From UHGV virus genome UHGV-0093931: DNA of 40,921 bases. The stretch is one strand, 5' to 3'. The notes under the pieces were generated by a model, which was given only the letters and a program-made list of their open reading frames with translations, searched no databases and had not been told where the DNA came from. Both the position numbers and the translations under genes were made by a program. Every line of letters begins with the position of its first letter. The stretch's first letter is position 1. Source of the DNA: a virus. Shown here piece after piece: positions 7,382 to 10,099 of the stretch.

Positions 7382-8008
7382 TTAAAGCTCGTACTGAACG
7401 CCTTTGACAACGCCGATGATCAGGCAATTACCGTTAATTGAAATGTTTGGATAGCGTGGATTTAAGGGAACTAAGAACTTTTGAGGCCCATCGATGACAA
7501 GTTTTTTTACAGTAGCCTCGTTTGTCCCATCAAGCCTGGCTACGACTATCTTTCCATGAAGTGGCTCTGCATCTGGATCTACTATGACTGTTGCCCCTTC
7601 AGGGATTGTCGGGAGGCCATTAGGGTTTGTCATCGAATCACCTTTAACCTCCAATGCAAAGGAGCTATCCCCTATGCGGAGTGATGTCTCTATCCACTTA
7701 TCTACTTCGCTGAAAACTTCTGCTGCTTTACATTCTGTAAACTGTCCAGCCTGAACCCAGGATATCACCGGAATCCTTCGCATCTTGGTTATCAGATTGC
7801 CTTCAAATTCAGTGCCATAAAGTATGTAATCAATTGATGTGTTGAAATACTTTGCAAGTTTCGCAAGTGACTCGCCTCCAGGCACATTAACGTCTTTTTC
7901 CCAATACCCAACCGCCACATCACTAACACCGCAGAACTTACCCAGTTCTTTCTGCGAGGTTTTGGTTATGCGCCTGAGAGCTTTGATGCGCTGACCGACA
8001 GTTTCCAT
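7382..8008 (-). CDS. cI: CI-type repressor (XRE-family HTH with LexA-like S24 peptidase domain)
   Basis: 208 aa; N-terminal HTH (...TSQKELGKFCGVSDVAVGYWE...) and C-terminal autocleavage-type domain; divergent from a cro-like gene. Confidence 0.9.
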   Translation of the reverse strand: METVGQRIKALRRITKTSQKELGKFCGVSDVAVGYWEKDVNVPGGESLAKLAKYFNTSIDYILYGTEFEGNLITKMRRIPVISWVQAGQFTECKAAEVFSEVDKWIETSLRIGDSSFALEVKGDSMTNPNGLPTIPEGATVIVDPDAEPLHGKIVVARLDGTNEATVKKLVIDGPQKFLVPLNPRYPNISINGNCLIIGVVKGVQYEL

Positions 8009-8110: not shown

Positions 8111-8338
8111 ATGACAACCGATGATATTGAAAACTACTTCGGCAGTACTGAGAAGGTTGCCGAATTTTTTGGAATCACAAGCGAGGCTGTTTACCAGTGG
8201 CGTAATAGAACTGGTCGCCTTATCCCAAAAGGGCGTGCAGCTGAAGCAGCATATCGAACCGGGGGGAAATTGGTTTTTCATCCCGACCTTTACGAAAAGC
8301 GTAGCGATGCTTCAGTAAAACTCAAACCACAGGAATAA
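8111..8338 (+). CDS. cro: Cro-like repressor (P22 Cro-like HTH)
   Basis: 75 aa; ...FGSTEKVAEFFGITSEAVYQWRNR... HTH; divergent from cI across the operator region; AGGAGG RBS. Confidence 0.8.
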   Translation: MTTDDIENYFGSTEKVAEFFGITSEAVYQWRNRTGRLIPKGRAAEAAYRTGGKLVFHPDLYEKRSDASVKLKPQE

Positions 8339-8348
8339 GGGGGGAGCT

Positions 8349-8900
8349 GTGGGTAACGAACCTATTTGGAAAGTCGAACGTCAGCCAGCCTGGCTGGTGG
8401 CGGCGATAAAAAAAACGATCACCGATCTTCCTGGTGGTTATGCCGAGGCGGCGGAATGGTTGGGCGTGACAGAGAACGCATTGTTCAACCGCCTTCGTGT
8501 TGACGGCGACCAAATCTTCCCGCTGGGCTGGGCAATGGTTTTACAACGTGCTGGTGGTTCAACTCATATTGCTGATGCCGTTGCGCGCCATTCTCAGGGC
8601 GTATTTGTACCGCTGGCAGACGTTGATGATCTGGATAACGCCGATATAAACCAGCGCCTGATGGAGTCCATTGAATGGATAGGTCGTCATTCTAATTTTG
8701 TACGTAAAGCCACGGCTGATGGGGTAATTGACGCAGATGAGCGTGCTCAGATTGAGGAAAACAGCTATCAGGTTATCGCGAAGTTCCAGGAGCACGTAAC
8801 GCTTCTTTATCGAGTTTTTTGTGTCGCTGAAAAGAGTGACGCCCGCGAGTGTGCAGCTCCGGGCGCCTTGGCGAACAACTCTTCGAGTATGGAGAAATAA
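8349..8900 (+). CDS. putative CII-like early regulator (phage 186 CII/CP76-like)
   Basis: 183-aa ORF directly after cro, GTG start with GGGGGGAG RBS; family assignment from memory only. Confidence 0.5.
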   Translation: MGNEPIWKVERQPAWLVAAIKKTITDLPGGYAEAAEWLGVTENALFNRLRVDGDQIFPLGWAMVLQRAGGSTHIADAVARHSQGVFVPLADVDDLDNADINQRLMESIEWIGRHSNFVRKATADGVIDADERAQIEENSYQVIAKFQEHVTLLYRVFCVAEKSDARECAAPGALANNSSSMEK

Positions 8901-8905
8901 TCCGC

Positions 8906-9232
8906 ATGAGCAGTTTAACGGCTTTTAACCGTCTACCGCAACTCAGGATGATCCCGGTTTCGGGTACTCCGTTGTTTCGGTATGAACGCAGATTATCAAA
9001 CCGCTGGGTTCCGTGTAACCACAGTAGGGCGGTTTCAATTGTGGGGGTCTATAACCGGAGGGCAAAACGCCTGTGCGCGAACTTAACCGAAGGTTCAAAG
9101 ACCACCGCGGAGTGTCTGTCCGTGTTATCCGCTGGGAACCAGAAACACAACGCGTTATCTACCTGCGTGATGGCTACCCGCACGAATGCTTCAGCCCACT
9201 TGAGCATTTCAGGCAAAAGTTCAGGGAGATAA
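8906..9232 (+). CDS. hypothetical protein (uncertain; an alternative overlapping 59-codon frame exists)
   Basis: ATG at 8906 with GGAG RBS; the S/R/N-rich translation is not convincingly protein-like. An alternative frame 9073..9252 reads more like a protein (see findings). Confidence 0.3.
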   Translation: MSSLTAFNRLPQLRMIPVSGTPLFRYERRLSNRWVPCNHSRAVSIVGVYNRRAKRLCANLTEGSKTTAECLSVLSAGNQKHNALSTCVMATRTNASAHLSISGKSSGR

Positions 9233-9241
9233 CGGACGATC

Positions 9242-10099
9242 ATGAGCACTAAATTAACCGGCTACGTATGGGATGGTTGCGCGGCGTCGGGCATGAAGTT
9301 GTCTAGTGTCGCGATCATGGCTCGCCTCGCTGATTTCAGCAGCGATGAGGGAGTGTGCTGGCCGTCCATTGAAACTATTGCTCGCCAGCTTGGCGCAGGG
9401 CCGAGCACGATCAGAACGGCAATCGCAAAGCTTGAAAAAGATGGCTGGCTCACGCGTACACAGCGCCGTAATGGTAACCGTAATGCGTCGAACGTGTACC
9501 GCCTGAATGTGGCGAAACTTCAGGCTGCCGCATTTTCTCAACTGTCAGATTCTGACACGTCAAAATCTGACGCATCAAATTTTGACGCCTCAAAAACTGA
9601 CCCGTCGAAATCTGGCAAAAACGGCGGTTTTGACCCGTCAGAATCTGGCGGGGATCCGTCAGTAAAATCAAAACAAGATCCACAAGTAACTTCAAAACCC
9701 TCTTGTCCGGTTGCGGCGCAACCAGACCCTGAAGTCGTGATTACTGATCAGGCAATTTTGGTTCTGACCCATTTGAACCAAATCAGCGGATCCCGGTATC
9801 AGAAATCAAAAACATCCCTGGAGAACATCCGTGCCCGACTGCGTGAGGGATACAGCGTTGCAGACCTGCAACTTGTTATCGACCTGAAGCATGAGCACTG
9901 GCACGAGAACGACGAGCAGTACCAGTACATGCGACCGGAAACGCTGTTTGGCCCGAAGAAATTCGAGAGCTATCTGCAAAGCGCTACCCGCTGGGAGCAG
10001 AAGGGACGGCCTAAACGTGCTGACTGGGGAGCGAAAAAGCGCGATGTGATGGCTTTTGGTCCGGTTGAAACAACGATTCCAGAGGGGTTCAGAGGATGA
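9242..10099 (+). CDS. phage replication initiator (O-like, N-terminal wHTH)
   Basis: 285 aa; N-terminal DNA-binding region; a low-complexity middle (SDSDTSKSDASNFDASKTDPSKSG) is encoded by the iteron repeats; first gene after the immunity/CII block. Confidence 0.75.
   Translation: MSTKLTGYVWDGCAASGMKLSSVAIMARLADFSSDEGVCWPSIETIARQLGAGPSTIRTAIAKLEKDGWLTRTQRRNGNRNASNVYRLNVAKLQAAAFSQLSDSDTSKSDASNFDASKTDPSKSGKNGGFDPSESGGDPSVKSKQDPQVTSKPSCPVAAQPDPEVVITDQAILVLTHLNQISGSRYQKSKTSLENIRARLREGYSVADLQLVIDLKHEHWHENDEQYQYMRPETLFGPKKFESYLQSATRWEQKGRPKRADWGAKKRDVMAFGPVETTIPEGFRG
9544..9651. repeat. iteron array (putative replication origin) inside the initiator gene
   Basis: Five tandem 15-bp units at 9544, 9559, 9574, 9589 and 9604 (gtcaGATTCTGACac, gtcaAAATCTGACgc, atcaAATTTTGACgc, ctcaAAAACTGACcc, gtcgAAATCTGGCaa) and a sixth copy at about 9637-9651; AT-richer DNA follows. 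Confidence 0.7.

Follow-up and report, generated by a model that had tools for sequence, protein, structure and literature searches.

A YmfM-like gene and a DUF4222 gene probably overlap in different frames just upstream of a phage replication initiator gene

The viral genome UHGV-0093931 was analysed as one DNA of 40,921 nucleotides (nt), referred to here as the window. On its plus strand, between the gene for a YmfL-like or CII-like regulator and the gene for a replication initiator, lie two overlapping open reading frames (ORFs). The first is YmfM-like, encodes 108 amino acids (aa) and runs from ATG 8906 to a TAA at 9230–9232 (8906..9232). The second encodes 59 aa of the DUF4222 family and runs from GTG 9073 to a TAA at 9250–9252 (9073..9252). 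They have 160 nt in common (9073..9232), where their frames are one base apart; DUF4222 occupies frame 1, and the tail of the YmfM-like ORF occupies frame 2, in which stop codons are avoided. An earlier sequence-only reading had located both ORFs, with a ribosome-binding site for the first and a GGAGGG upstream of GTG 9073, and these positions proved right; the GGAGGG, which resembles a Shine-Dalgarno motif, lies at 9058..9063. Its hand translation of the 59-aa product was exact, and the end of that ORF does overlap the start of the initiator gene, by 11 nt from ATG 9242. That reading also judged that only one of the two ORFs was likely to be real, and here our analysis points the other way: we put the probability that both are real, as an overlapping pair of a YmfM-like and a DUF4222 gene, at about 0.78.

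The start of the 108-aa ORF is held in common by its relatives, all of which have M-[S/N/T]-S-[L/V]-T as their first residues, aligned with ATG 8906; a program-made ORF list shows a longer ORF from GTG 8849 that contains it. A GGAG lies at 8891–8894, and the regulator gene stops at 8898–8900, 5 nt before the ATG. At its other end the YmfM-like ORF is in one frame with the initiator gene, from which it is separated by its TAA and three codons (CGG ACG ATC; 9230–9244), the stop lying 9 nt before the initiator ATG.

The 59-aa frame, which the sequence-only reading had suspected to be real, is a real gene and a clear member of DUF4222. Its product scored 59.1 bits (E=3.2e-16) on the Pfam model PF13973, whose curated gathering cut-off is 27, with residues 4–53 aligned to model positions 5–52 of 53; it also matched phrog_1343 with E=2.4e-33. 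The family core, RG..V.VI.W....RVI[YF].R.GY.HEC, is present and the length is typical; the whole model is matched, and no feature sets the product apart from ordinary members. A profile search of 1.8 billion representative proteins returned 75 DUF4222 clusters (at 50% identity), mostly stand-alone proteins of 58–73 aa in which this core recurs. We then compared the start position in 116 related loci and found ATG in 72, GTG in 35, TTG in 8 and GCG in 1, with a purine-rich motif (GGAGG, GGAAGG, AGGAG or GGAG) 5–11 nt before the start in most subtypes; in Pantoea/Mixta loci this motif is weak (GGGG). The single GCG, at position 2001 of locus L049, replaces the start codon of a gene that is otherwise intact. 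AlphaFold2 (AF2) predicted a confident small beta-barrel for the 59-aa product (predicted local distance difference test, pLDDT, 84.5), and the predicted fold is SH3/Tudor-like. The earlier description of this peptide as basic holds marginally (isoelectric point, pI, 8.0; net charge +0.9); the strongly basic product is the 108-aa one, with a pI of 11.4.

Rates of nonsynonymous relative to synonymous change (dN/dS) were calculated for 65 distinct sequences that share the ORF geometry of the window. Over the overlap, dN/dS was 0.11 in the DUF4222 frame, 2.27 in the ymfM frame and 2.06 in the third frame, and the DUF4222 frame is thus under strong purifying selection there. These values bear directly on the idea that the 108-aa ORF is the only gene and the 59-aa frame a spurious internal ORF. 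Such an arrangement is what the K-12 reference NC_000913 and the records of phages Flotzy, vB_EcoM-720R4 and SfIV imply by listing the ymfM-frame ORF alone, and the experimental papers name YmfM as the active product. Against this, the constraint in the overlap follows the DUF4222 frame, the Pfam match is to a family whose members mostly stand alone, and the DUF4222 start is conserved in position behind its purine-rich motif and opens a protein with a confident predicted fold. We consider a YmfM-only locus scarcely tenable.

A different picture was obtained for the first half of the 108-aa ORF, where a single frame codes (codons 1–55, 8906..9070). Here the ymfM frame had a dN/dS of 0.28, whereas values of 0.86 and 1.23 were obtained for the remaining frames; purifying selection thus acts on the ymfM frame over about its first 55 codons. 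The whole 108-aa product matched phrog_1170 (E=5.4e-17; residues 1–107 on model positions 1–111 of 112), and its N-terminal domain (N-domain) is conserved as a protein across genera and over three diverged subtypes: type I, that of the window (RLPQLRMIPV...RWVPCNHSRA..IVGV); type II, that of prophage e14 (YRRSQLIALP...FAEWAVGDF); and type III (KQFRCLP...YVEII..AD..NYQ). Pairwise identity between them is low, and alignment of type I with the type II and III profiles by hhalign gave a probability of 96.5% and E=7.9e-10, which supports homology of the subtypes, that of e14 YmfM included; stand-alone genes are among the type II and III sequences. AF2 placed residues about 8–63 of the 108-aa protein in three strands and a long helix with pLDDT ~90. 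No Pfam match of the 108-aa product and no structural relative of the N-domain was found.

The view implicit in the National Center for Biotechnology Information (NCBI) Prokaryotic Genome Annotation Pipeline (PGAP) is that DUF4222 alone is a gene, the 108-aa ORF being a chance frame and 8906–9072 a non-coding leader. In its favour, PGAP lists DUF4222 alone in the E. coli records in question, the 108-aa product lacks a Pfam match, its C-terminal half is of low complexity and predicted to be disordered, and a candidate antisense promoter and hairpin, described below, could explain some of the conservation at the DNA level. Yet the constraint over 8906–9070 is specific to the ymfM frame, the N-domain is conserved as a protein over subtypes and genera, occurs elsewhere as a stand-alone gene and is predicted to fold with pLDDT ~90, and the ymfM frame beyond it is kept free of stops, by codon choices that depend on context, up to a conserved stop. 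The first half of the 108-aa ORF is real coding sequence; we regard a DUF4222-only locus as very unlikely, and on the same observations the earlier choice of a single real ORF is left unsupported. A non-coding role for 8906–9072 was also considered directly and rejected: a search of Rfam gave no match there, the plus strand showed no intrinsic terminator, and the frame-specific dN/dS favours coding.

The second half of the 108-aa ORF behaves differently. Over its last ~50 codons it is DUF4222 read in the +1 frame; residues 57–108 consist to 63% of S, T, A, G, C or N, and AF2 gave residues 64–105 a pLDDT below 50, predicting disorder. The 108-aa translation looks poorly protein-like, as the sequence-only reading had remarked, because this tail is a low-complexity, disordered reading of another gene; the remark applies to the C-terminal half and not to the N-terminal half. 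No amino-acid constraint was detected on the ymfM frame within the overlap, and what is conserved in that frame there is the avoidance of stops and the position of the final stop.

This avoidance was measured in 192 distinct DUF4222 cores of 50 codons, drawn from all subfamilies fetched. No +1-frame stop was present in 190 of them; the two carriers, L265 (about 1041–1043) and L269 (1032–1034), belong to a subfamily without a fused N-domain. When synonymous codons were resampled with the codon usage of the window, 1.72 stops were expected per core and the mean probability of an open frame was 0.11; when synonymous codons were permuted within each gene, 0.58 stops were expected and the probability of an open frame was 0.51. 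Over the full set, the +2 frame of the same cores held 3.40 stops against an expected 3.30 and gave no sign of avoidance. In the control genes the null was calibrated for the +1 frame of the N-domain (2.68 observed, 2.64 expected) and roughly so for that of the initiator gene (2.55 observed, 3.73 expected). Clustering at 80% nucleotide identity left 13 clusters, of which 12 were wholly open in the +1 frame, and the product of the null probabilities over these 12 was 10^-11 under resampling and about 10^-2.8 under permutation.

The choice of individual codons revealed how the frame is kept open. Wherever a final purine in a Val or Leu codon would let the next codon complete TGA, TAA or TAG, the codon has T or C as its last base: at Leu/Val4, Val18 and Val28, each followed by a codon beginning with A, only CTT, CTC, GTT or GTC was used. 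Where the next base is C or T, by contrast, GTG, CTG and ATA are used freely in every subfamily. Thus Val14, followed by Pro (CCN), is GTG in 37 of 57 cases, and Leu31 is CTG in 76 of 92; the Arg32 that follows such a CTG is never AGR, whereas other Arg positions are rich in AGG and AGA. Four further subfamilies were examined, the Providencia type among them, and each by itself showed the same dependence on the next base. From this pattern in the sequences, the +1 frame of DUF4222 looks to be maintained open by selection.

The stop that closes the ymfM frame is conserved as well. The TAA at 9230..9232 consists of the last two bases of DUF4222 codon 53 (ATA) and the base after it. Across the related genes this codon is ATA in 64 of 64 cases of Ile, TTA in 23 of 23 cases of Leu and GTA in three of four cases of Val, and it is by joining these rare codons to the next base that the TAA or TAG is formed. 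The position matters because the ymfM frame is also the frame of the initiator gene; translation across the stop would read ...SSGR*RTIMST, into the initiator itself. Avoided stops followed by a conserved stop make sense only if ribosomes read the ymfM frame.

It could be argued that the N-domain and DUF4222 are genes and that the long tail is a neutral accident, its open frame inherited and not selected. The lack of amino-acid constraint (dN/dS 2.27, close to that of the third frame), the synonymous sites of DUF4222, which are not depressed, the existence of stand-alone N-domain genes, for which the tail is dispensable, and the probability of ~0.5 per gene under permutation are all in keeping with this. 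Yet synonymous sites are well mixed (proportion of synonymous differences, pS, 0.46) and still no purine-ending Val or Leu codon occurs at the stop-prone positions in 190 of 192 genes and 12 of 13 clusters, while the same residues take GTG or CTG freely where no stop would arise. The position of the stop is moreover held by rare codons, and the control genes show no such avoidance. A neutral tail is therefore an unlikely account.

For the pair of genes that we favour, the following course may be proposed. Ribosomes would initiate at ATG 8906, probably by coupling to the end of translation of the regulator gene 5 nt upstream, and would make a 108-aa product with a folded N-terminal domain (residues about 8–61) and a disordered tail of some 45–50 residues that is no more than DUF4222 read in the +1 frame. 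A separate start at GTG 9073, behind the GGAGGG, would give the 59-aa DUF4222 protein. Over the 160 nt in common the DUF4222 frame sets the sequence, and the tail frame is kept free of stops up to the conserved one. Upstream frames that both end near a start codon are typical of phage operons in which translation is coupled, and the two frames here, whose ends lie ~10 nt or less from the start of the initiator gene, probably supply that gene with ribosomes in this way. The candidate reasons for an open tail frame are such coupling by ribosomes in the ymfM frame, a tail needed in the protein whatever its sequence, or an independent nested peptide. The last is suggested by the Providencia-type loci described below, where a nested ORF has an ATG of its own at a TAATG junction and a hydrophobic N-terminus.

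Several observations weigh against the pairing of two translated genes, or against parts of it. Our case for translation of both frames is drawn from sequence signals, and the upstream motifs are rather distant, GGAG lying 11 nt from ATG 8906 and GGAGGG 9 nt from GTG 9073. The tail is without amino-acid constraint, its dN/dS of 2.27 being about that of the unused third frame (2.06), and it could be irrelevant to function. The pS of DUF4222 (0.46) is also about as high as that of a neighbour that is not overlapped, the initiator gene, whose first 85 codons gave 0.50 in these genomes. Under permutation, the conservative null, stop avoidance loses significance (~10^-2.8), and the sequences are related phylogenetically. 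The +1 frame is open also in the Providencia-type loci, where coupling from ymfM cannot explain it. Finally, the similarity of the 108-aa product to e14 YmfM lies mostly in the tail that DUF4222 dictates, the N-domain subtypes being different, and the experiments on YmfM used the whole e14 ORF, from which the active frame cannot be told.

The junction of the two ORFs also raises the question of a programmed -1 ribosomal frameshift, by which the N-domain would be fused to DUF4222 and one gene would comprise the two ORFs as its 0 and -1 frames. If the 108-aa ORF is taken as frame 0, DUF4222 does lie in frame -1, and a run of A at 9064–9067 is found downstream of the last stop in the DUF4222 frame. 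Three database proteins, P0092, P0144 and P0125 (102, 123 and 114 aa), carry the N-domain and DUF4222 in one frame. Only one contig is the source of P0092, and the joins in all three are consistent with deletions, indels or assembly errors, which they probably are, and not a normal architecture. The junction itself reads caaaac, cgaaac, cgaaag or gagagc depending on the lineage, with no conserved X XXY YYZ motif, and DUF4222 has a conserved start and an upstream purine-rich motif of its own. In Providencia-type phages, moreover, the N-domain gene is in the other frame and ends 8 nt into DUF4222, and a frameshift gives no reason why the 0 frame should be open to the end or close at a conserved stop. 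We hold a frameshift to be highly improbable.

In these Providencia-type phages the N-domain is a separate gene of 58–70 aa (phrog_26022), whose TAA, 8 nt inside DUF4222, overlaps an ATG (TAATG; locus L116, 1212–1684, and L117–L134). This TAATG opens a 58-aa ORF nested in DUF4222 in the +1 frame, with a hydrophobic N-terminus (MKTQIILIGCIWISVVFVFASYVM...). If this ORF is set beside the fused form, a wider reading presents itself, to which we would give slightly less than an even chance: throughout the DUF4222 family, in enterobacterial, Pantoea and Providencia-type phages, the +1 frame may be translated and selectively kept open, mostly fused to an N-domain to make YmfM, and in the Providencia type on its own, as the 58-aa peptide that begins at the TAATG with a hydrophobic N-terminus. 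DUF4222 would then be conserved as a gene that codes in two frames, the second under no constraint beyond that of being open. The form that the constraint on the second frame takes, "stay open, stop here" without an amino-acid sequence, is a useful example for gene finders, for the study of overprinting and for coupling into a replication gene.

Other architectures were observed in the wider set of loci. In ST64B-type phages (L004, 1589–2746, Salmonella phage ST64B; L005, 1591–2739) codon 53 of DUF4222 is TGT. The stop of the YmfM frame is absent there, the ORF continues in frame into a Rha-family gene (Sb41, 385 aa), and the N-domain looks degraded. In L222-type loci (L218–L234, about 741–1238) a different upstream ORF (MAWGKKKAEQLQLVGNHFSNWEF...) crosses DUF4222 in the +1 frame and runs past the DUF4222 stop, so that reading through DUF4222 from an upstream gene is not confined to N-domains of the YmfM type. 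More distant DUF4222 loci were sought with P0155 as the query, and none was found.

The closest characterized relative of the 108-aa product is YmfM of the E. coli prophage e14. According to a 2020 preprint (J Bacteriol 2021), e14 ymfM is SfiC, an SOS-inducible inhibitor of FtsZ-ring formation, and over-expression of its ORF led to filamentation and a block of the FtsZ ring; the evidence consisted of the whole e14 ORF in pBAD24 and a deletion, and no frame-specific mutant was reported (bioRxiv 10.1101/2020.11.19.390815). In two earlier over-expression screens the recovered fragments spanned ymfL through ymfN and hence held both genes. The e14 ORF has the same position as that of the window, between ymfL and the replication gene, as is the case in SfIV and other relatives, and the same geometry: 108–112 aa, a stop 20 nt before the DUF4222 stop, and one frame with the replication gene. 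Both belong to phrog_1170, and the e14 ORF likewise holds a nested DUF4222, there with a TTG start. They differ in the N-domain, which is type II in e14 and type I here. Identity between the 108-aa product and three e14-type ORFs of 112 aa that were retrieved (P0140, P0141, P0143) was 41–59%. Judging by homology and position, the 108-aa product corresponds to e14 YmfM (SfiC), and a role in cell division may be supposed for it by extension; the phenotype itself was reported for the whole e14 ORF, and not for this phage or frame by frame.

The overlap has a consequence for that phenotype. Since the e14 ymfM ORF ends 20 nt before the DUF4222 stop, a clone of it should carry DUF4222 minus its last six codons, with the TTG start and an AGGAG, and a ymfM deletion should by its coordinates remove the nested DUF4222 too. 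The assignment of SfiC thus rests on a clone and a deletion that, by coordinates, both also affect DUF4222. If the family-wide reading is true, any of three products, the N-domain, the tail or DUF4222, could cause the SOS-inducible block of division that has been ascribed to E. coli YmfM.

The two ORFs have fared differently in annotation. Matches to the DNA of the locus were obtained in 102 phage records and, among 5426 complete E. coli genomes searched, in 2747, about half. In the three phage records opened (Flotzy, vB_EcoM-720R4 and SfIV) the long ORF alone is annotated, as "hypothetical protein" or "YmfM", and in NC_000913 it alone appears as ymfM, b1148, "cell division inhibitor YmfM". 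PGAP, in contrast, gives a "DUF4222 domain-containing protein" alone at the locus in the E. coli records listed, among them a K-12 MG1655 assembly. Either route loses one of the two genes, PGAP keeping DUF4222 and the K-12 reference and the three phage records keeping ymfM. A homology search with the 59-aa product returned 108 proteins, nearly all named DUF4222, and one with the 108-aa product returned 35 proteins without names, of 104–142 aa. The sequence-only reading had proposed that searches with both translations would decide between them; since different gene callers each choose one of the two ORFs, both have database homologues, and the searches were uninformative on that point. Our literature search, for an overlap of ymfM with DUF4222, for ribosome profiling of ymfM and for a K-12 DUF4222 accession, found no paper on the overlap or on DUF4222 in the library searched.

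Same-strand overprinting is familiar from lambda Rz/Rz1, phiX174 D/E and MS2 L, in which a second frame is likewise read on the same strand, one frame being constrained and the other odd in composition. The present pair differs in that the second frame is a C-terminal extension of the upstream gene and is not fully nested, and in that amino-acid constraint could not be detected on the YmfM tail, where the openness of the frame and the position of its stop are all that is conserved. An overlapping gene pair is of a known kind, and this one is drawn from two known families; the signature of a constraint on the open frame is unusual and well supported.

The surrounding stretch of the window is a lambdoid early-right operon. 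A CI-like repressor gene lies on the minus strand (7382–8008), followed by a Cro-like gene (8111–8338; P22_Cro) and, on the plus strand, by the YmfL-like or CII-like regulator gene (8349..8900, 183 aa), which matched Phage_CP76 of Pfam with E=1.1e-9 and whose relatives are annotated as YmfL family. Next come the YmfM-like ORF, in the position of e14 ymfM, the DUF4222 gene and the initiator or replisome organiser gene (9242..10099, plus strand, 285 aa; HTH_36 and Phg_2220_C of Pfam), and the operon also holds a gene for a Dam-type methylase. The interval from a CII-type regulator to an iteron-bearing initiator corresponds in operon position to the lambda cII–O region, which carries the OOP antisense RNA and whose initiator O holds the origin iterons. 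Lambda is not known to carry a gene in the interval from cII to O, unlike the phage family of the window, which has two genes there.

On the minus strand, a sigma-70-like promoter with 9 of 12 matches was noted at 9019..8992, and a GC-rich hairpin followed by a run of U at ~8840–8867 (fold z=-2.1; region 8822–9019). As a prediction at the level of consensus, these suggest a candidate OOP-like antisense RNA that would cover the start of ymfM together with the 3' end of the gene for the CII-like regulator. In K-12 e14 an abundant antisense small RNA, ECS003, was reported at the same junction (PMC3175480). A simple promoter scan of e14 found no matching antisense promoter. In the same genomes the pS of the N-domain region was 0.25, whereas DUF4222 (0.46) and the initiator gene (0.50) gave values about twice as high. 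This could be due to an extra constraint such as an antisense element, or to the choice of a single N-domain subtype.

Within the initiator gene, at 9530–9647, we observed six TCAAAATCTGAC-like copies with inverted symmetry, spaced every 15 nt except for 33 nt ahead of the last copy. These repeats look like origin iterons, as in lambda O.

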